This document shows, in pieces, positions 1,388 to 58,828 of a stretch of DNA of 64,000 nucleotides. Within the stretch, counting starts at the first letter, position 1, and every line of letters starts with the position of its first letter. Origin of the DNA: Mobula hypostoma (lineage: Eukaryota); assembly GCF_963921235.1 (NCBI RefSeq), contig NC_086097.1, positions 134,418,001-134,482,000 on the forward strand, written 5' to 3'. Under the pieces are notes generated by a model that saw only the letters and a program-made list of their open reading frames with translations, was not told the DNA's origin and made no database searches. The position numbers and the translations under genes were made by a program.

Positions 1388-2445
1388 AACTCCAGGTTAC
1401 ACAGTGCGCCTGACAATGAACCGCAAGTAAAAATTTATACACAAGGCGAATGGCCACTCATTTTGTAAAATGTTCTGCTGAAATACTATAATACAAATTG
1501 AAACAGCTGCAAAACAAAGCTCTCCCTCAAGGTTTTACAATTCAAGAATAAAGATTATGGTGAAAAGAATGCGCTCCAAAAAGCATGTAACAAGTTCCTT
1601 CTTAAATGTCCAATAACTTTTCTCATTTTACATTCAATTTGTAACATTCACATGGACACACACAAAATACACTTTAATTACCAGGGTTTCAGACTGAAGC
1701 TGTTACTAAATCCCTCTATGTAACTGGAATAAATATTCACAGACAGTATACTTTGTGCAGCTAAAATAAATTTAAGTCAATATCTTTGCAAAGTCAATTT
1801 CAGAAGTCAATCAGTACATCTGAATTCACTAAATTAGAATTGAAATAATTTTATGCTATAAAAGGATATGTAACAGAAGTATAATTTTTTCAATTACATA
1901 TAATTTGTGAATATGTCAGTAAGAATATGTCAGACTATGATGAAGAAATGATGTGTATATTAATCTTTGCTGACCTATGGAAATATTTTGATTTTCCATC
2001 CCACAAAAGTTTTAAAACTCAGTGAGTACATTTTGAGCTTTTACGTACAGTAGGATCTGGCTAACTAGGACACATCGGGACCAGTACATTTTGGCCCAAT
2101 TAAGCAGCGACCCCACTCAGAGAAATTTCATGGATAATAGTATATTTCATGGATAATCATATATAATAATAGACAAACTACCATTAACTGAGTAACAAAT
2201 TATGTACTTAAATGAATTACAGAACAAATTAGAATACTAACAATATTACTACAGTACTATAAAACTGTAGTCCCTAACAGTTAATGGCAGAAGAATTCAT
2301 CCACAGTTATGCTAGGTGTTCTTTTGATAGACTGTAAACACATCAGTGCAGACACCTAGTGCAGATAATGGACTGCCTTCATACAGTATATTCAACGACT
2401 GCATCCTCCAAATCTTCATTTTCATTTAAACATTCAAGATGATTG

Positions 2446-5289
2446 TTGAAGTGCAGATTGTTATTATTGAATATAATATAGTTGGGATCACAGAGACATG
2501 GCTCCAGGGTGACCAAGGATGGGAGCTCAACATTCAGGGATATTCAATACTCAGGAGGGAGAGACATGAAAGAAAAGGAGGTGAGGTAGCATTGCTGATT
2601 AGAGAGGATATTAACGCAATAGAAAGGAAGGACATTAGTCGGGAGGATGTGGAATCGATATGGATAGAGCTGTATAACACTAAGGGGCAGAAAATGCTGG
2701 TGGGAGTTGTGTACAGGCCGCCTAACAGTAGTAGTGAGGTTGGGGATGGTATTAAACAGGAAATTAGAAATGTGTGCAATAAAAGAACAGCAGTTGTAAT
2801 GGGTGACTTCAATCTACATATAGATTGGGTGAACCAAATTGGTAAGGGTGCTGAGGAAGAGGATTTCTTGGAATGTATGCGGGATGGTTTTTTGAACCAA
2901 CACATCGAGGAACCAACTAGAGAGCAGGCTATTCTAGACTGGGTTTTGAGCAATGAGGAAGGGTTAATTAGCAATCTTGTCGTGAGAGGCCCCTTGGGTA
3001 AGAGCGACCATAATATGGTGGAATTCTTCATTAAGATGGAGAATGACATAGTTAATTCAGAAACAAAGGTTCTGAACTTAAAGAAAGGTAACTTTGAAGG
3101 TATGAGACGTGAATTAGCTAAGATAGACTGGCAAATGACACTTAAAGGATTGACGGTGGATATGCAATGGCAAGCATTTAAAGATCACATGGATGAACTA
3201 CAACAATTGTTCATCTCAGTTTGGCAAAAGAATAAATCAAGGAAGGTAGTGCACCCGTGGCTGACAAGGGAAATTAGGGATAGTATCAATTCCAAAGAAG
3301 AAGCATACAAATTAGCCAGAAAAAGTGGCTCACCTGAGGACTGGGAGAAATTCAGAGTTCAGCAGAGGAGGACAAAGGGCTTAATAAGGAAGGGGAAAAA
3401 AGATTATGAGAGAAAACTGGCAGGGAACATAAAAACTGACTGTAAAAGCTTTTATAGATATGTGAAAAGAGAAAGATTGGTTAAGACAAATGTAGGTCCC
3501 CTACAGACAGAAACAGGTGAATTGATTATGGGGACCAAGGACATGGCAGGCCAATTGAATAATTACTTTGGTTCTGTCTTCACTAAGGAGGACATAAATA
3601 ATCTTCTGGAAATAGTAGAGGACAGAAGGTCCAGTGAGATGGAGGAACTGAGGGAAATACATGTTAGTAGGGAAGTGGTGTTAGGTAAATTGAAGGGATT
3701 AAAGGCAGATAAATCCCCAGGGCCAGATGGTCTGCATTCCAGACTGCTTAAGGAAGTAGCCCAAGAAATAGCGGATTCATCAGTGATAATTTTTCAAAAC
3801 TCTTTAGATTCTGGACTAGTTCCTGAGGATTGGAAGGTGGCTAATGTAACCCCACTTTTTAAAAAAGGAGGGAGAGAAACCGGGGAATTATAGACCAGTT
3901 AGCCTAACATCGGTGGTGGGGAAACTGCTAGAGTCAGTTATCAAAGATGTGATAACAGCATATTTGGAAAGCGGTGAAATCATCGGACAAAGTCAGCATG
4001 GATTTGTGAAAGGAAAATCATGTCTGACGAATCTCATAGAATTTTTTGAGGATGTAACTAGTAGAGTGGATAGGGAAGAACCAGCGGATCTGGTATATTT
4101 GGATTTTCAAAAGGCTTTTGACAAGATCCCACACAGGAGATTAGTGTGCAAACTTAAAGCACTCGGTATTGGGGGTAAGGTATTGATGTGGATAGAGAAT
4201 TGGTTGGCAGACAGGAAGCAAAGAGTGGGAATAAACAGGACCTTTTCAGAATGGCAGGCAGTGATTAGTGGGGTACCACAAGGCTCAGTGCTGGGACCCC
4301 AGTTGTTTACAATATATATTAATGACTTAGATGAGGGAATTAAATGCAGCATCTCCAAGTTTGCGGATGACACGAAGCTGGGCGGCAGTGTTAGCTGTGA
4401 GGAGGATGCTAAGAGGATGCAGGGTGCCTTCGATAGGTTAGGTGAGTGGGCAAATTCATGGCAGATGCAATTTAATGTGGATAAATGTGAGGTTATTCAC
4501 TTTGGTGGCAAAAACAGGAAAACAGATTATTATCTGAATGGTGGCCAATTAGGAAAAGGGGAGGTGCAACGAGACCTGGGTGTCATTATACACCAGTCAT
4601 TGAAAGCGGGCACGCAGGTACAGCAGGCAGTGAAAAAGGCAAATGGTATGCTGGCATTTATAACAAGAGGATTCGAGTACAGGAGCAGGGAGGTACTACT
4701 GCAGTTGTACAAAGCCTTGGTGAGACCACACCTGGAGTATTGTGTGCAGTTTTGGTCCCCTAATCTGAGGAAAGACATCCTTGCCATAGAGGGAGTACAA
4801 AGAAGGTTCACCAGATTGACTCCTGGGCTGGCAGGACTTTCATATGATGAAAGACTGGATCGACTAGGCTTATACTTGTTGGAATTTAGAAGATTGAGGG
4901 GGGATCTTATTGAAACGTATAAAATCCTAAAGGGATTGGACAGGCTAGATGCAGGAAGATTGTTCCCGATGTTGGGGAAGTCCAGAACGAGGGGTCACAG
5001 TTTGAGGATAAAGGGGAAGCCTTTTAGGACCGAGATTAGGAAAAACTTCTTCAGACAGCGAGTGGTGAATCTGTGGAATTCTCTGCCACAGGAAACAGTT
5101 GAGGCCAGTTCATTGGCTATATTTAAGAGGGAGTTAGATATGGCCCTTGTGGCTAAAGAGATCAGGGGGTATGGAGGGAAGGCTGGTGCAGGGTTCTGAG
5201 TTGGATGATCAGCCATGATCATACTGAATGGCGGTGCAGGCTCGAAGGAGCCGAATGGCCTACTCCTGCACCTATTTTCTATGTTTCTA
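2446..5289 (+). mobile_element. CR1-clade LINE, 5'-truncated inside the endonuclease domain, young
   Basis: APE motifs (VGITETW, GVVYRPP, MGDFN, LDWVL, KSDHN), RT motifs (QHGF, YLDFQKAFD, GVPQGSVLGP, KFADD), CR1 C-terminus (RTRGH, RVVNLWNSLP), 3' UTR ending TTTCTATGTTTCTA. Confidence 0.95.
2448..5199 (+). pseudogene. CR1 ORF2 (APE endonuclease plus reverse transcriptase) with a single frameshift near 3871-3879
   Basis: ORFs 2439-3893 and 3913-5199 join as KKGGR|EKPGNYRPVSLTS if one GA dinucleotide is restored; no other stops; the extreme N-terminus is missing. Confidence 0.92.
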
Positions 5290-18355: not shown

Positions 18356-19350
18356 TGAAGTGCTTAGGACATTTGACTATTGCCTTTTGTAAATGCAGAT
18401 CATTTTCTATGCTATTTATTCATTTAGTTCCTCCTGTAAGTCCTAAAAAAAGATCATAGTTCTACAATGAACACATCAGAAGTTGTTATCAGGGTTTGTT
18501 TTAGTAACTTGAAGGCATGTTGCAGCCTTTTGGGCTTACTATAGCAGATTCTACAACTTCAGATGGGTTAATTTTCTGTCTTTATCAGTCAACCATCTAT
18601 AATATATGATCAGTTTGTTTCTTTATCCATCTTTTCCTTGTTCTGAAGGAGTGGGGGACATGTCCAGTTTGACCTGCCAGACATGTAGTCCTGCTTTGTA
18701 TTTTGCAAATCCACACACTTGTTCTTGATTTGCTGCCATTCACTTATTGACCAGATGACCTTGCTTACAGCTCATCTCCATGGTCATCACAGTTTCACCC
18801 TATCGGGGACATTCCATTCCCTCACCATCTCCAAAGTTTAACAGGTTTTTATTTGTTTCTTTCCAAGTTCTGACAAAGGGGCTTCAACCTAAAACATTGG
18901 CTCTGTTTTCCTTCACTCAAATGTAGTCATTATGTATAATTGTTAATCATGCAATTAATAACACATGGAATTCCTACGCCATCATCATCGAATACCAAAT
19001 CCATCACCCACAAAATGAGTGAAAATAAATTCTTTCTCAGCCTTCCCAGATAAATGATAAAAAATAATAAGTAAATGGAAGTGATTATCAGGGAGTAATC
19101 TAATTTCAGGCTTCAGAACACCATCATTTATGGGAATGATGTGAACCCTTTGATCAATATTACTAAGAATAATTCCTGGGTGTCTATTATTTGCTATTTA
19201 AATCAATTTACTGAATAAAAAATATTGAGAGGTTATTTTCATTTCAACTGATTGGTTGTTGACCACACGGTACAATTTTATCAACACAAATGACAAAGGC
19301 TGGACTGTACTGAGGGAAATAATCGTTATCGGCAACAGTCCAGTTTCATT

Positions 19351-19410
19351 CAACACACATCAAAGTTACTGCTGAACGCAGCAGGCCAGGCACCATCTCT
19401 AGGAAAAGGT
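19351..19410 (-). mobile_element. 60-bp Penelope-derived insert matching the sequence 3' of the hammerhead cleavage site
   Basis: 16-bp direct repeat ACAGTCCAGTTTCATT at 19335-19350 and 19411-19426; the insert is the reverse complement of the segment following GAAACGTC at 48785-48851. Confidence 0.85.
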
Positions 19411-19836
19411 ACAGTCCAGTTTCATTGTCGGTTTTCCTGATCTGCTCATAGAACAAAAATCTATTGGACTAATTAAACAATTCTATAATGCAAGTTTAAT
19501 AAATAATTTAGATATACTTCTCTCTGATTTTAGGTTTTAATGCATCTTACTATTAATCATTTCAGCTCTTCAGGATTGTTTCCAGACTAACATCATTCAA
19601 TATTATTCAAAGAATAAACTTGAACAGGGTTTCAATGTTATTAACCATAAATAACTTGTCTTAAATGGAATGCCAAAGGTTACATCACTCTTATAAAAAT
19701 CTGGCCTGTTTAATCTGCATTTATTGCAGCTCTTCATGCATCTTGTGGTGAAAGGACTATTGACCAATCTACTCTTTCACCTTCTTCACTCTGGAGACAA
19801 GGAGAGCAAACTAATCTCTTAACAATCACCAAATTT

Positions 19837-28821: not shown

Positions 28822-29001
28822 AAATAAACTCTTCTTGGGCTTCCAGCTGTGTACAGGTATCGATTATAACTGACGTTTCGATGACAAACTCCGCCATCTT
28901 CATCACATCAAGACTACGGTTATAATTGATACCTGTACCCAGCTGGAAGCCTGAGAAGAGGTTATTCGTCATAAACACCGGGAAAGCACTAGATCCTTTT
29001 T
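28822..29001. mobile_element. Second-family fold-back mini-element with a hammerhead-like motif, inserted in the Gypsy pol remnant
   Basis: About 50-bp inverted arms (28823-28872 / 28917-28966); 14-bp TSD CAGAGCTCGTGTAT / CAGACCTCATGTAT with 2 mismatches; minus strand reads (g)TGATGA-AGATGGCGGAGTTTGTCATC-GAAA-CGTC. Confidence 0.8.
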
Positions 29002-32246: not shown

Positions 32247-32479
32247 AAGTAACTCACACAAAATGCTGGAGGAACTCAGCAGTCAGGCAGCATCTACGGA
32301 GGGAAATAAACAGTTGACATTTCAGGCTGAGACCCTTCATCAGTCCTAACAAAGGAGACCAGGTGAGGCGCTCAGCTCAAAACATTGACTATTCATTTTC
32401 CTCCATAGATGCTGCCTGACCACTAAATTACTGCAGCAATTGTGTGTGTTACTCAAGATTTCCAGCATCTTAAGATGTC
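32247..32479. mobile_element. Penelope-derived fold-back mini-element
   Basis: Inverted arms; 9-bp TSD CTATTTCCT (32238-32246, 32480-32488); minus-strand CTGATGAAGGGTCTCAGCCTGAAATGTC hammerhead core at about 32312-32346. Confidence 0.8.
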
Positions 32480-36570: not shown

Positions 36571-37341
36571 ATCATACAGCACATCAATTACCCACCTGTA
36601 ACTAAAAGTTTTGTTTTGCTAGGAATCATCTAACAAGGTTTCTCTCCTGTTCTGGAGATTTTGCTGAAGAGAAATTTCTTGCCCGTTCCGTTCCCCATAG
36701 ATTGGAGTTGATCAAAATTCTGCCTCCTGTGTTCTAAATATGCCAGAGTTTGCTGGCTTACACTGGGCCTCAGTCTGGTAATGCCTCAATTTGAAAATTC
36801 TTAACTTTAATTCACACCTGGCTTTTGACCATGCTATTGAATAACCCCCACAAACCTTTGATCTCCATGTTTTTCTTGTAAAGTCCTTTTAATTTACCCC
36901 TAATTTCCAAGATCCTACCATTAATGAGTGTACCTTCAGCTACCTGGGCACTAAACTCTGGAATATCTTCTCCAAGTCCCTCAACTCCTCTCTACCCCTT
37001 CATTTCTAAAAACCTACCTGTATGATCAAGATTCTGATGTCCAAACACACAGCTCAGCATGAAACATTGTTGACAGAGCTCTTTGGGATAAAGATACCGT
37101 ATAAATGTTGGAGGTTTAGCCTTCAAAGGGTTAACTAATGGATTGAGAGAAATTAACACAGGAGAACCGAAATCCAAACTTCATCAGCACTTATTGGTTG
37201 GAGTAGAGTCTTTTATAATAGTGCAATTTCTCTGTGTGTGAATTATTTTGGATACATGAATTTCCGCCAAGTTTCCTTTAGCCAGGCGTACATTGCTAAG
37301 AGACTTAACGATCTCTTTATTCAGACGGTTAAATTGCAAAC

Positions 37342-37508
37342 CTGTGTGGGTCCTGAAGTGATCTCTCATGGCCGATGCTGTGAGGAAAGAATAGTGGCAG
37401 GTCAGCCAAGGGCACTTGAAAGGCTTCTGGCCCATATGCAGCTTCTTGTGGTTGGTCAGGGCCCACTTCTCAATGAATGTTCGGTCACAAATCTCGCACA
37501 CAAATTTC
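37342..37508 (-). CDS. ZNF407: ZNF407 internal coding exon (167 nt, phase 2 to 1): (R)KFVCEICDRTFIEKWALTNHKKLHMGQKPFKCPWLTCHYSFLTASAMRDHFRTHT(G)
   Basis: Acceptor ttcttttaattttgcacaacAG, donor GTttgc; two C2H2 fingers inside ORF 37184-37582; splices in frame to 15934; peptide recognised as ZNF407. Confidence 0.94.
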
Positions 37509-39354
37509 CTGTTGTGCAAAATTAAAAGAAGGAGGTTTAGATATAAGGTGCAGGAAAGGGTACAAAAATTAAAACCACACATACGATCCTAAAACAGCAT
37601 GTTACAAACAAACTGAAGTATCTGCGTGGACTTTGTGCAGACAGAAATGCAGGCTTGTGCCTGTCACATCTATATAACCAGGCATTGATTTTCCTGTCGA
37701 CACCAGGCACTTCAGCCATTTATCCTCTGCTCCACAGTTGGACCCAAAGGGTTTGAAAAATTCTGTTACAGTCCGGTTGCCCCTAAGGCAAATGTGAGAA
37801 TGGATTTCACCTGTATGGTCCTCTCACTTACCCAGGGTGCGTGCTGTCAGAGTAAAGGCTAAACGGAAAATCATCCACGCAAGGTTACTCAACCAATCAC
37901 ACCAGCATGAACTTAACCATTGCCGCGGTGCGCACATTCCTGGATCAGCACACAGACTGAAATCACAGGCGTTGCTGCACCATATCACATTCCCATATTT
38001 TTATGCCCTGTGACTAGACAAATCTCATAAGGCTTGACTCCATGTGGTAAGAGGCATTGATTAACTTGGTTCCGTAGCCAGATAGGCTGCAAATGCCCCA
38101 AGAGATGTAGTGGACTGAAGCAGAAAAAGAAGTAACAACCGGTCTGCTACTGAATACGTTGTGTAAGGATTGAACCTGTGAAATCTTGCATCATTTATAA
38201 CCAGTTTTTAAATGGTGTTTCCCGGTTGCTATTTGAGATATCTACTCCACTTATGTTATTTTAATAAAAATGCACTGTACATAGAACAGAAATACCCATT
38301 TTTTAAAGGAAAAGATATGACATTAAACATATCATAGGCTGAATGCAACCACCATATCCCTTCAGCGTTGACATTAAGACAGATAAACTTACCATTCTGA
38401 CTAAAGATAAATTTACTTAAACTGTTTTGCAAATCATTACTACCATTCACTAAAGTATCATATAAAGGTATAATTTGGATAGCTTGAGCATGTCAAGCTG
38501 AAGTAGAAGCAGCATGGGCCTAGCATTTCTGGCACTGACATTGTCCACTGCTCACAGCTGGGTGTAGTTTATGTCTGGGCACTATGTTAAACATCCTTGT
38601 TGTTGGATGACGAGACTGGTCACAAGCTTTCATGTTACAACGGGTACAGAAGGAAATCATTCAACAGGAACATTGCAGGCAAGTTGGCATCAAACTTCTT
38701 GATTTGCTGAACAGTAGGCCCGCTTTGCTTGCCAATATCCAAGATGCAAGGTTTCCTAAACTTTTCCAAACATTCATGAAAGTGCATCTTAAAATAATCT
38801 GCTTACAAACTTCGCAATACTGCAGATCTAAACCCATCATTATCTAATTATACAAAATAACTGAAAATGTACAACAGATTGGCCATAGGAAAACAAAAGA
38901 CTCCACAGACTTCTGAAGATTCTAGTTCAAAATGTTAACAAATCTCTTTTGTTGCTTATTAGAATGGTACACATTTCCAGCCTTTGCAGTTTTCTCCCTG
39001 GCAATAAGCAATAAAATCCTTAGTTCCTAGAAAGTCTAACCTTAGCATTATCACTGCAACTAAAGTATAGACAAGCATTTTGCCAAGTGCCAAAAATTTC
39101 AACCCAAAGACACAGGATTAGGCACAACATTAATTCATTACAAAACACCACCATACAGCCTTTCAACAGTCCCTTGGAAAAAGCACAAAGATACAACCTC
39201 AGATCTTTGCATCCTGTGGGAAGGTGCCTTAGCATATGACAATGTTGTAGAGATACTATTCACTTCTCACACAGGTAATAATATAAATTAGATTTTCTTT
39301 ATGAAAGGTATTTCATTCCTGAGATGCTGAACTCAGAAAATCACAAAAACTAGC

Positions 39355-43317: not shown

Positions 43318-45811
43318 TTCTAAGTTCAATCTTTCGTCTACATTTTGTTGACAATAAAGGGTAACTGCTTAAAATCGAGAAACACACACCAAGAAGCAGA
43401 ACTAAAGTTCAAAAAGTTCAAAGCAAATTTATTATCAAAGTATACATGTAGGATAGACAATCACGAGATTCATTCATTTCTTGCTAGAGAGAGCAGAATA
43501 CAGAGAATGTGTGTACATTTCTCCATTTATGTAATTTCAACCAAACTTTACAAACTAATGAGCTCTCTACTTATTTTTGTAGACAAGTGGCAAAGGCTGA
43601 TAACTCCCAATTCTGAGTCTAACACACCCTACACCTATCATGATGGAAATAACAGCGAGGATTTCCCTTCCTCCTTTTGGTTTGAAATATATTAAAAATT
43701 ATCTGCTCATTGACAAATTTCCATTTGTGAAAAAGATTGCTGTATACCAACTAGCACCTCTCTTAGTACGTTACAGAAGTGACTGCTCTTTAAGAGGTCC
43801 GGAGGGCATAATCACAGCACTCAGGACTTAATACTGCTGAATAATGTCAGACAACCAGCCTTCCCCAGGCATATCAAGGTGGCCATTTCTCGGGAAAAGT
43901 CAATCACCTGCTGCTTGATGACCTACTGAATGTTTCTAACATCCTCTATTTAAAGTTCAGATTTCTATCAACTGCAGCTTTTTGGCTTTTCCAAAAGTAC
44001 CTTACTCAGTATAAAATGTGTTGGGAAGACCCAAACTCACGTAAAGCACTATAGTAATGCAAATTTTTTTTTTTCTTTTGATATGACTGTGCAGGGAATG
44101 CTGGCTCAACTTCAACACTTAAGAGAAGTTTGGATAAGTATGTGAATGGGAGGGAGACAGAGGATCATGGGCCAAGTGCACGTCGATGGGACTAGGCAGA
44201 ATAACTGTTCGGCATGAACTAGACGGGCTGAAGGGCCTGATTCTGTACTGTGTGTTTCATGACCCTATGACAAAAATGGTATAATCAGCAAGCAAAAGGC
44301 CAGTGACACTTTATGCACAATGTTTTTTCATTATTCATAAAGTGACACTGGGCATTTGCTTGCTGATTATGAACTAATTCCACTCAGTAGTTTAACAGAA
44401 GTTATGCAAAAGACATTGCAGTCATTTGAAGATTCTGGAGCATTCTCTCTTCTGAGACTATTATCTGCATGGCTCCATTATAAATTAACACAAAATTAGC
44501 AGAACTAAAACAAACCATAAAATGATCAGCTCAGCAGCACAACAGTCATATGCCAACATTTTCATTTATATTTTTCTCTTTGCCTTAGAGTGAGTATATT
44601 CATAGACTACAGTGACATACTTCTGCATTCTGTCAACGGTTTATTCTACTAAGTGATGTTATCGGTCTAACTAAAGAAAATAGCAAAATTATTACAGTGA
44701 CTGTTGGAAACTAAACATCTGGACATTTTGGGGACAGATTTACACGCTGTCTGTCAGATAAAACACTGCCTGCTGTTTATGGAACAAGGATATGCCTGGC
44801 AGCTTTTCCCAGCTCTGCTATCAGACTTCTTCAGTAACCATTATTCCACCCTTACTGAAGAATGACATCCTGTCTTGGCTTATGGAGTTATTTCCATCAG
44901 TGGCAGTACCTCAGACAGCCTCTGATTGTAATCATTTTTCTGGGTAAAAATGTAAGTCAATTTACATTTCATAGTCCATTGGATCTTGGGGAAATATTGT
45001 GCTCAACCAACATATGTGAACTGATTATTGTATCAAAGTGCAACAACAACAATTTCTATTTATTTAGCACCTTTAATGCTGCAAAACATTTCACAGAAAC
45101 CTCATCAAGCATAATTCAGGGCAGATGACCAAAACCTTGGAAAAAGTGGTGGGTTTTAAGCAGCATCTCAAAAGAAGAGAGGCAAAAGCTCTAAAGACCG
45201 CCGAGTGCCATTTTAAAGAACCTCTTTAAAGTGGGGTGGTAGAATAGAGGTTTAGGGGGAATTCCAAAGGGGCCCTTGGCAGCTGAAGGTATGAGTGTCA
45301 GTAACAGAGCTGTTAAATTTCTGGAAGAGAAGATTTTGATAAGTTGTAGAGGTTATATGCAAAAATGTGCAAGGAATTTGATGAGAATTTTTAAATCAAC
45401 ATAAATGATTCAAAATTACTCATCGATTTGCTTGTGCATTGGAAGATCTATTATGCATTCTTCAGTTCACTTTACCAATGTCTCACTCAAAAGGGTTAAG
45501 AATGGCATCTTAGAATATCAGTGTGGTTCATTCCTGCTGAATTTGGCTTGGAGGATGTTTACTGCAACTCTACAGTTGCATGGAGCACAGAGCAAAAGTA
45601 GAAGCTTAAAGCAAAACACAGTGAAACACCGCGAAACATTACAAGCAATCCTGTATGTAGTGTGATTTTACTCTTGAACTGCGAAAAAGGAAAGAAATAA
45701 GCCATAGGAGCAGAATTAGGCCATTCAGCCCATCAAGTCTGTTCTGCCATTTGATCACAGCCGAATTATTTTCCCTCACAACCTCATTCTCCTGCCTTCC
45801 CCATTACCTAT

Positions 45812-46997: not shown

Positions 46998-47465
46998 TTA
47001 TTAATCAAGAATCTATCAACCTCTGTTTTAAACATACTTAATGACTTGACCTCCACAGCAGTCTGTGGCACTGAATACCACAGATTCACCACTCTCTGGC
47101 TAAAGAAATTCCTCCTCATTTTTGCTGTAAACAGTCATCCTTCTTATTCTTAGGCTGTGCCCTCTGGACCTGGACTCTCTCACTACTCAAAATAAATTCT
47201 CTCTACATCCTTCTATCTAGGCCTTTCTAAATTTCAAAAGGAAATATAAGCAAGTACATGTCCAGAACTATCAAACGCTCCTCATATGTAAACCTTTCAT
47301 TCCTGTTATCATTCCCCTACTCTCCTCCGGAGCCTCTCCAATACCAGCACATCCTATCCTTGATATGAGACCCAAAAACCGTTCACAATACTCCAAATAT
47401 GGGCAACATACATAAAAGTTGCTGGTGAACGCAGCAGGCCAGGCAGCATCTCTAGGAAGAGGTGC

Positions 47466-47501
47466 AGTCGACGTTTCAGGCCAAGACCCTTCGTCAGGAC
47501 T
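47466..47501 (-). ncRNA. Minimal type I hammerhead ribozyme motif
   Basis: AGTC-CTGACGA-AGGGTCTTGGCCT-GAAA-CGTC^GACT on the minus strand: intact core, helix I AGUC/GACU, palindromic ACGU in place of helix III. Confidence 0.75.
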
Positions 47502-48032
47502 AACTGAAGGAAGAGTGAGTAAGGGATTTGAAAGCTGGAGGGGGAGATCCAAAATGATAGGAGAAGACAGGAGGGGGAGGGATGGAGCCAAGAGCTGGAC
47601 GGGTGATAGGCAAAAGGGATACGAGAGGATCATGGGACAGGAGGTCCGGGAAGAAAGACGGGGGGGGGGGGACCCAGAGGATGGGCAAGGGGTATATTCA
47701 GAGGGACAGAGGGAGAAAGAGGAGAGTGAGAGAAAAATGTGTGCATAAAAATAAGTAACAGATGGGGTACAAGGGGGAGGTGGGGCATTAGCGGAAGTTA
47801 GAGAAGTCGATGTTCATGCCATCAAGTTGGAGGCTACCCAGACGGAATATAAGGTGTTGTTCCTCCAACCTGAGTGTGGCTTCATCTTTACAGTAGAGGA
47901 GGCCGTGGATAGACATGTCAGAATGGGAATGGGATGTGGAATTAACATGTGTGGCCACTGGGAGATCCTGCTTTCTCTGGCAGACAGAGCGTAGATGTTT
48001 AGCAAAGTGGTCTCCCAGTCTGTGTCGGGTCT

Positions 48033-48257
48033 CGATGTGGCCTTTTATATATTGGCGAGACCCAACGCAGCTCCCGATGTGGCCTTTTATATATTGGCGA
48101 GACCCGACGCAGCTCCCGATGTGGCCTTTTATATATTGGCGAGACCCGACGCAGACTGGGAGACCGCTTTGCTGAACATCTACGGCTCCCGATGTGGCCT
48201 TTTATATATTGGCGAGACCAGATGCAGACTGGGAGACCGCTTTGCTGAACATCTACG
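48033..48257 (+). repeat. Tandem repeat of the YIG-coding segment (37, 42 and 73 nt, then the full copy)
   Basis: GCTCCCGATGTGGCCTTTTATATATTGGCGAGACC restarts at 48070, 48112 and 48185, with a partial copy from 48033. Confidence 0.92.
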
Positions 48258-48752
48258 CTCTGTCTGCCAGAGAAAGCAGGATCTCCCAGTGGCCACACAT
48301 TTTAATTCCACATCCCATTCCCATTCTGACATGTCTATCCACGGCCTCCTCCACTGTAAAGATGAAGCCACACTCAGGTTGGAGGAACAACACCTTATAT
48401 TCCGTCTGGGTAGCCTCCAACCTGATGGCATGAACATCGACTTCTCTAACTTCCGCTAATGCCCCACCTCCCCCTCGTACCCCATCTGTTACTTATTTTA
48501 ATACACACATTCTTTCTCTCACTCTCCTTTTTCTCCCTCTGTCCCTCTGAATATACCTCTTGCCCATCCTCTGGGTCCCCCCCCCTTGTCTTTCTTCCCG
48601 GACCTCCTGTCCCATGATCCTCTCGTATCCCCTTTTGCCTATCACCTGTCCAGCTCTTGGCTCCATCCCTCCCCCTCCTGTCTTCTCCTATCATTTTGGA
48701 TCTCCCCCTCCCCCTCCAACTTTCAAATCCCTTACTCACTCTTCCTTCAGTT

Positions 48753-48788
48753 AGTCCTGACGAAGGGTCTTGGCCTGAAACGTCGACT
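48753..48788 (+). ncRNA. Minimal type I hammerhead ribozyme motif
   Basis: AGTC CTGACGA AGGGTCTTGGCCT GAAA CGTC^GACT; predicted cleavage after 48784. Confidence 0.75.
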
Positions 48789-49820
48789 GCACCTTCTTCC
48801 TAGAGATGCTGCCTGGCCTGCTGCGTTCACCAGCAACTTTTATGTGTGTTGCTTGAATTTCCATCATCTGCAGAATTCCTGTTGTTTGACTCCAAATATG
48901 GTCTGCCTGAAGCCTTGTAAGCTGCAGTATTAATTCTTGCTTTTATATTCTAGTCTTACCAGTCAAGATGGTACCTGTGTGCAATGGTCCCACGTTTGTT
49001 TTTCATCCTGATTGTGATTCTGGAACTGTTGGAGGCTGTAATTTGAAGTTTGGAGATCGTTTGCTTGTTTCACCACTCTGCAGTCTCCGAGAGGATTCTG
49101 GGAGGCTGAGGCGCCAAGCATGCTGAGCTCGTTGACTTCATTAACTTTGCCTCCAACTTTCACCCTGCCCTCAAGTTTACCTGGTCCATTTCCGACACCT
49201 CCCTCCCCTTCTAGATCTTTCTGCCTCTATCTCTGGAGCCAGCTTATCTACTGATGTCTACTATAAGCCTACTGACTCTCACAGCTATCTGGACTATTCC
49301 TCTCCAGTTCTCACCCTGTCTCTTGCAAAAATGCCACCTTCTCGCAATTCCTCCATCTCTGCCGCATCTGCTCTCAGGATGAGGCTTTTCATTCCAGGAC
49401 GAGGGAGATGTCCTCCTTTTTTAATGAAAGGGGATTCCCTTCCTCCACCATCAACTCTGCTCTCAAATGCATCTCCCCCATTTCACACACATCTGTTTTC
49501 ACTCCGTCCTCCTGCCACCCCACTAGGAATAGGGTTCCCCTTGTCCTCACCTACCACCCCACCAGCCTCCGGGTCCAACATACAATTCTCTGTAATTTCC
49601 GCCATCTCCAATGGGATCCCACCACTAAGCACATCTTTCCCTCCCCCCCTCTGCTTTCCGCAGGGATCGCTCCCTACGCAGCTCCCTTGTCCATTCATCC
49701 CCCCAATCCCTCCCCACTGATCTCCCTCCTGGCACTTATCCTTGTAAGCGGAACAAGTGCTACACATGCCCTTACACTTCCTCCCTTACCACCATTCAGG
49801 GCCCCAAACAGTCCTTCCAG

Positions 49821-50147
49821 GTGAGGCGACACTTCACCTGTGAGTCGGTTGGGGTGATATACTGCATCCAGTGCTCCCGATGTGGCCTTCTATATATTGG
49901 CGAGACCCGATGCAGACCGGGAGATCGTTTCACTGAACACCTACGCTCTGTTCACCAGAGAAAGCAGGATCTCCCAGTGGCCACACATTTTAATTCCACG
50001 TCCCATCCCCATTCTGATATGTCTATCCACGGCCTCCTCTACTGTAAAGATGAAGCCACTCTCAAGTTGGAGGAACAACACCTTATATTCTGTCTGGGTA
50101 GCCTCCAACCTGATGGCATGAACATTGACTTCTCAAACTTCCGCTAA
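49821..50147 (+). pseudogene. GIY-YIG endonuclease domain of the Penelope-like element (domain open, upstream ORF broken)
   Basis: VIY..CxxC..YIGET, R..EH, E and terminal G.N motifs. Confidence 0.88.
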
Positions 50148-50452: not shown

Positions 50453-50488
50453 AGTCCTGACGAAGGGTCTCGGCCCGAAACGTCAATT
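50453..50488 (+). ncRNA. Minimal hammerhead motif with weakened helix I
   Basis: AGTC CTGACGA AGGGTCTCGGCCC GAAA CGTC^AATT. Confidence 0.65.
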
Positions 50489-58729: not shown

Positions 58730-58828
58730 CGAGTCCTGACGAAGGGTCTCGGTCCGAAACGTCAACTGTACCTCTTCCTGGAGATGCTGCCTGACCTGCT
58801 GTGTTCACCAGCAACTTCAATGTGTGTT
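58730..58828 (+). mobile_element. 99-bp Penelope-derived insert: hammerhead motif plus short 3' tail
   Basis: Perfect 12-bp TSD ACTATGATTTTA (58718-58729, 58829-58840); AGTC CTGACGA AGGGTCTCGGTCC GAAA CGTC^AACT at 58732-58767. Confidence 0.87.

Follow-up and report, generated by a model that had tools for sequence, protein, structure and literature searches.

Minimal type I hammerhead ribozymes accompany the Penelope-like elements (PLEs) of metazoans (Cervera and De la Pena 2014, PMC4209133, partial text), and such minimal motifs are described as cleaving in the form of dimers (review PMC6765202, partial text). Whether they cut in vivo, and whether the cut RNA is then copied, is posed as a question in the accessible parts of PMC4209133, PMC8557442, and PMC11167929. 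For the Anolis Poseidon element PAc (Frangieh et al. 2024, PMC11167929), the accessible text reports that ribozyme mutants insert normally in vitro and that cleavage is dispensable; the uncut RNA is the dominant substrate, and RNA-seq reads starting or ending at the cut were absent. Searches of the open-access literature gave no paper in which PLE 5' ends are mapped relative to the cut, and the supplements of PMC11167929 (e.g. Fig. S2) may bear on this point.

The insertion analyzed here, at 19335-19426 of a 64-kb window of the Mobula genome (the whole stretch of DNA that was analyzed), belongs to a family closely resembling these systems. Like the PLEs in the accessible parts of PMC8557442 and PMC3846280, the family shows 5' truncation, adjoining inverted copies, target duplications, and microhomology at the 5' joint, together with two 3' end zones about 36 nt apart plus a putative GIY-YIG-like domain at the C terminus with a CX2-5CxxC linker. 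The 5' ends were not mapped against the ribozyme in those texts, whereas here a 66-bp copy starts at the predicted cut and the family's 5' ends pile up at -37..-22. With PAc, as far as the excerpts of PMC11167929 describe it, the family shares reverse transcription that starts internally and independently of homology, at two sites that bound the tail, as well as priming on both strands and a hammerhead just upstream. The R2 elements (PMC3774820, partial text) offer the same idea of a ribozyme cut recorded as the 5' end of genomic copies. However, the cut of the HDV-like ribozyme is the regular 5' junction in Drosophila R2, while here the share of copies starting there is a fraction of a percent at most, and in the Mobula PLE the ribozyme sits near the 3' end of the element.

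The parent element and its hammerhead motif

Judged from its sequence, the parent element appears to be an endonuclease-bearing PLE. It is probably of Neptune type; its C-x4-C-x2-C motif fits the CX2-5CxxC linker given in the accessible part of PMC8557442. Two features in the window represent it:

48753..48788, plus strand: intact minimal type I hammerhead motif, used as the reference; cut predicted between 48784 and 48785; GTCGAC palindrome at 48782-48787 centered on the cut (features as in PMC4209133, partial text)
49629..50147, plus strand: C-terminal protein part of the parent element, with the C-x4-C-x2-C linker and a putative GIY-YIG-like endonuclease; the hammerhead copy at 50453 follows downstream (open reading frame; Pfam)

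The decayed protein copy matched the Pfam profile PF01541 with an E-value of 5.7e-4 and 20.6 bits, which is under the cut-off of 22.6, and the two broken frames upstream (49145-49821) gave no Pfam match for a telomerase-like reverse transcriptase. A pLTR with a hammerhead after the open reading frame and an optional tail of 30-40 bp was recognized. Positions in the family are numbered from the base after the GTC of the intact motif (+1). In the 3.48-Gb assembly, a 23-base anchor covering +14..+36 has 61,915 occurrences, and in 147 copies the 3' ends fall into two clusters, at about +63..+69 and about +100..+105.

The motif at 48753-48788, one of four intact hammerhead motifs in the window, carries the CUGANGA and GAAA boxes, the extra base before stem II, G10.1-C11.1, C17, a palindromic helix III without a loop, and a 4-bp stem I, which are all the descriptor features listed in the accessible part of PMC4209133. 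Rfam gave no match at the gathering score, and the monomer fold lacked stability (z about 0), which is what a dimer-type motif would show. Self-cleavage at the GUC is a prediction from sequence for the Mobula motif, unlike the hammerheads of PMC4209133, and of the ribozyme the 66-base insert retains just the 3' arm of stem I.

A head-to-head pair in the window (47403-48034 vs 48213-48852) has an inverted 5'-truncated copy adjoining the 5' end, an arrangement seen in 50 of the 79 unselected copies that start at -100..+14. The PLE insertion at 47403-48852, which is young and head-to-head, contains internal tandem duplications at its joint (48033-48257; units of 42 and 73 bp). Further self-inverted stretches lie at 1030-1238, 32248-32453, 28823-28966, and 44281-44370, the first two being older palindromic insertions of a related PLE subfamily. 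The window also contains a long LINE at 2430-5199 on the plus strand, which encodes an AP endonuclease and a reverse transcriptase in two frames and has a break near 3850-3893, and a probable exon with C2H2 zinc fingers at 37184-37588 on the minus strand (Pfam PF00096, weak ZN292-like match), so that the window may lie in a zinc-finger gene.

Structure of the insertion and probable capture of its cDNA

The following features make up the locus:

19351..19416, minus strand: inserted PLE fragment, family +1..+66, with 60 unique bases and 6 common to the target duplication (sequence, blastn)
19411..19426, minus strand: target-site duplication, copy 5' of the insert, 16 bp (sequence)
19335..19350, minus strand: target-site duplication, copy 3' of the insert, 16 bp; element homology stops at +66 (sequence, alignment)
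19411..19416, minus strand: 6-nt microhomology between the target and element +1..+6; 5' junction ambiguous over +1..+7 (sequence; about 0.3% by chance over 16 registers)
19419..19424, minus strand: second 6-nt match, between the target and element -9..-4 (the ribozyme GAAAC box), upstream of the predicted cut (blastn, alignment)
19297..19346, plus strand: inverted repeat in the target flank, 12-bp stem, one arm overlapping the target duplication (z = -4.4; 0 of 200 shuffles fold equally well)

Read on the minus strand, the 16-mers at 19426-19411 and 19350-19335 are identical and the bases adjacent to them differ, so the repeat is exactly 16 bp. Between them are 60 unique bases (19410-19351), which together with the common 6 nt give an insert of 66 bases (19416-19351). 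The insert is identical to the family majority sequence +1..+66 at 62 of 66 positions, and its first base corresponds to the base directly 3' of the predicted cut in the intact motif. The description in the earlier note, of a 60-66 bp minus-strand insertion beginning exactly at the predicted cut with the sequence that follows it in the intact motif, set in a 16-bp direct repeat and having its terminal 6 nt in common with the duplication, was correct. The 3' end falls in the first of the two common 3' end zones of the family, and the 3' joint has no homology. The two identical copies suggest that the 16-mer was present at the target before insertion. A search of the flank across the assembly matched only the flank itself, indicating a single-copy site, and found no empty-site paralogue; RNA contigs from four runs on 19100-19700 covered the repeat alone and never bridged the site. 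An 11-base part of the new 5' junction is mirrored in one arm of the hairpin at 19297-19346, a resemblance for which chance accounts poorly.

A point missing from the earlier note is that the target resembles the element upstream of the cut also. The target TGAAAC (19424-19419) is followed by TG standing against GTC and then by GACTGT, so that 12 of 15 columns match the element, and the blastn alignment crosses the predicted cut without a break (19424..19345). Since target homology to the element is present both before and after the cut, this copy proves nothing on its own, and its proposed status as fossil evidence of ribozyme cutting in vivo does not follow from it.

The locus is probably best explained as a 5'-truncated ordinary PLE insertion whose 5' joint was set by annealing to a target already matching the element around the predicted cut. 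The endonuclease of the element would nick the target, and reverse transcription would start internally at about +66 without homology, as it does in vitro for the Anolis PLE. The 6-nt match at +1..+6, aided by the second match at -9..-4, would then allow the other target strand to capture the cDNA, and any cDNA extending past +1 would be trimmed. Homology of 6 nt at the end of a blunt event has a chance of about 0.3%, and because of this rarity annealing was probably used at the joint. The uncut RNA is the main template of the family, because about 95% of unselected copies (140 of 147) reach upstream of the cut and run through the site, and it would yield the same product as that seen here. 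Microhomology is the rule in this family: it amounts to 1-4 nt in 51 of 53 clean inverted junctions at +1, and to at least 1 nt in 8 of 10 unselected truncated copies with duplications of at least 8 bp, one of these 10 copies (L149) being mis-mapped. The duplications in these copies measure 10-15 bp, and the 6 nt of the present copy stands at the top of the family's range of homology.

The same bases could have been laid down from a cut RNA. The template would then be the 3' cleavage product of the ribozyme, copied from +66 to the cut end, with the last six cDNA bases annealing end to end with the target overhang. The maximal match does start exactly at +1, and a cDNA ending there would anneal in this way and give an identical sequence. 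The Anolis ribozyme, moreover, cleaves with its protein present according to the accessible text of PMC11167929. However, the long two-sided homology of this target is just what would capture an uncut cDNA, and the upstream block at -9..-4 favors that course; on balance, copying of a cleaved template appears unlikely at this locus. Far less probable still is an origin of the fragment from a longer copy that once extended to -9 or beyond, or as a repair-templated patch. Element-like bases extending to -9 and the inverted repeat in the flank, whose origin is unexplained, would agree with it, but the two 16-mers have stayed the same down to the TG that is foreign to the element, whereas 4 of 66 bases of the insert have drifted, and the 3' end and the duplication length fit the primary insertions of the family. 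Stalling of the reverse transcriptase at stem I was also considered and rejected, as it would be expected to give ends near +5/+6 and not at +1. A non-LTR retrozyme, which consists of tandem units each with a complete hammerhead (10.64898/2026.07.22.740005, partial text), was rejected as well; the insert is a single fragment without a ribozyme core, and no tandem array of units with complete hammerheads was found in the window. The insertion is real and ordinary, with the structure and mechanism of known PLE insertions.

Family 5' ends around the predicted cut

The unselected sample consisted of 147 copies, taken from the first 100 anchor matches and their neighbors in 9.9-kb stretches, with copies within 900 bases of pattern-selected ones omitted; most came from the first 5 Mb of one contig. 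Their 5' ends lay upstream of -100 in 68 copies, many of which simply run to the end of the reference, at -100..-41 in 18, at -40..-38 in 2, at -37..-22 in 40, at -21..-1 in 12, at +1 in 1, and at +2..+14 in 6. A smaller set of 98 copies gave a distribution of the same shape. The zone -37..-22, which was picked after the data were seen, holds 27% of the unselected copies, or 1.7% per base, and 40 of the 79 ends within -100..+14 (p 1e-14). In the window it corresponds to the following feature:

48747..48763, plus strand: zone where most short copies start, family -38..-22, beginning at TCAGTT, which may be initiator-like or splice-acceptor-like (unselected 5' ends)

The TCAGTT can be read as an initiator, or as a splice acceptor together with the upstream TACTAAC, which is branch-point-like, and the pyrimidine run of the majority sequence. 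In the corresponding region, Drosophila Penelope has an internal promoter and an intron (PMC2377424, PMC4209133, both in part). The simplest reading is that priming occurs in the tail near the 5' end of the RNA and that synthesis runs off at an uncut 5' end near -36, so that the start zone likely marks the real 5' end of the RNA. Comparison by eye of copies starting at -37..-22 revealed no common upstream exon of the kind a spliced RNA would leave. One copy in the window, at 58732, starts at -32. An apparent preference for AATGAAA targets was an artefact of the query and was absent among unselected copies.

Genome-wide junctions were counted with patterns of two non-matching bases followed by 23 family bases at positions -4, -3, -1, and +1 to +5. 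The raw counts over the whole genome were 221 at -4, 190 at -3, 56 at -1, 233 at +1, 65 at +2, 107 at +3, 118 at +4, and 254 at +5. We classified 50, 20, 30, 92, 20, 30, 29, and 48 matches at these positions, respectively; the set at -3 contained only matches not already seen as palindromic pairs, and the 92 at +1 remained from 95 after identical contexts had been merged. The estimated numbers of true junctions, which exclude intact and directly rearranged copies and are comparable only roughly as filter pass rates differ (about 0.3-0.8), were 177 at -4, 171 at -3, 28 at -1, 195 at +1, 55 at +2, 50 at +3, 77 at +4, and 138 at +5. In the +3 set, 6 of 30 copies (L241, L245, L248, L249, L251, and L267) carry GA -> CT at +1/+2. 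This change disrupts stem I and restores the GTCCT present in its other arm; it may reflect either a template switch that recurs or a subfamily.

There is no sharp peak at +1. The raw count of 233 was rejected as one, given the 254, 221, and 190 at control positions, and the +1 junctions make up about 0.3% of the anchor copies, or about double once the filter is corrected for, compared with 1.7% per base at -37..-22, which argues against a cleaved template. The earlier note had named a sharp genome-wide peak of 5' ends at the GUC site as support for its claim, and this test failed: the main pile-up lies at -37..-22 and +1 does not rise above -4, -3, and +5. Nor were the 5' ends uniform, and +1 is used also without long homology, blunt joints included. 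The insertion does not count as an R2-like ribozyme-defined junction, since the family ends do not peak at the cut.

Use of +1 where cleavage could show

The +1 junctions are mostly head-to-head insertions (69 of 92). In these, the longer arm is the informative class, because nothing upstream of the junction was copied there. Hand-curated counts, from which palindromic joints and gaps of less than 3 nt were excluded, were fitted with a Poisson model that took into account the homology length and the zone of the partner. Position +1 ended the longer arm in 18 events against 10.6 expected (RR 3.3, 1.5-7.3), while as the shorter arm, where the partner runs through the site, it was used 32 times against 31.5 expected (RR 1.05, 0.58-1.89). 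This restriction of the excess to the class in which nothing upstream was copied speaks for a cleaved template. Of the 92 junctions sampled at +1, 8 were simple insertions, and these tend in the same direction (RR 2.2, p 0.06).

A filter-free pattern for short head-to-head joints, from which GTCGAC palindromes were excluded by design, gave 139 matches, and the first 100 of these comprised 79 events judged by eye. Among the 79 events listed, 24 fell at +1, 17 at a GTAC palindrome, 12 at -5, and at most 4 at every other position. The model was fitted to 51 events. Set aside were the 17 palindromes, 2 events that could not be placed, and 9 that had inserted bases, were ambiguous, or lay beyond -8. 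It gave an RR at +1 of 2.9 (1.6-5.2), or 2.3 (1.1-4.7) without the commonest joint, and an RR at -5 of 2.4 (p 0.047). The nine copies of the commonest +1 joint have different flanks and are therefore independent events. Five of seven blunt joints were at +1, as were 9 of the 16 whose homology was 0-1 nt, against 11 of 86 possible joints, and +1 had eight distinct partners, compared with at most two at any other position. The excess at +1 would fit a cleaved template. Against this, joints matched by eye for 2-nt homology and a 7-nt gap numbered 12 at +1, 11 at -5, and 3 at -3; the counts are small and partly made by eye, and about 10 loci are common to both analyses.

The excess might instead arise at the DNA level, from the GTCGAC palindrome, whose symmetrical joints would later be opened or deleted at the tip, together with the mirror sequences of stem I. 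This explanation concerns the genome-wide signal rather than the copy at 19335-19426, and we regard it as possible though doubtful. Perfect GTCGAC-centered inversions are indeed common, with 19 pairs among the first 100 of 190 matches at -3 and about 70 events estimated; four of the low-homology joints at +1 are 1-3 nt deletions of the palindrome; the commonest partner of the clean inverted +1 junctions is the other stem I arm (18 of 53); and the GTAC palindrome, which has no ribozyme role, accounts for its 17 events all the same. However, the excess stays when the four possibly decayed palindromes are removed, with 5 of 12 low-homology joints still at +1 (p 0.004-0.012), and the palindrome leaves simple insertions and far-downstream partners (+24 to +52) unexplained. 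The GTCGAC class is also expected from two cleaved ends joined bluntly. Perfect head-to-head insertions are estimated at about 70 centered on GTCGAC and about 30 on GTAC, numbers that fit either 6-nt homology or blunt joining of cleaved ends.

Among the simple insertions that the palindrome does not explain, the copy L313 (minus strand, about 4820-4900 from the locus end) is a clean twin of the present one, with a 66-bp insert starting at +1, a 13-bp duplication, and homology of only 2 nt. It is a better witness for a cleaved template than the 19335-19426 locus. A small minority of templates may thus be cleaved in vivo. The modest over-use of +1, about 2-3 fold, is compatible with the in vivo cutting proposed in the earlier note but is not proof of it. 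As no reads ending at the cut appear in the accessible text on Anolis PAc, a small genomic excess at +1 in the Mobula family would be evidence lacking there.

With about 62,000 copies, the family makes the question of cut-RNA copying countable. The counts place the cut RNA as a minor template at most, and point to another 5' boundary, far stronger, that lies just upstream of the ribozyme. A tentative further reading, which we hold to be rather improbable, is that the genome preserves two fossil RNA 5' ends, a major one at about -36 (a transcription start or splice acceptor just before the ribozyme, which would have given rise to a quarter of the copies as short run-off cDNAs) and a minor one at the cut, with the 19335-19426 insertion as a cleaved-template copy. 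If so, the minimal ribozyme would cut a small fraction of the templates within the retrotransposition complex of the germline.
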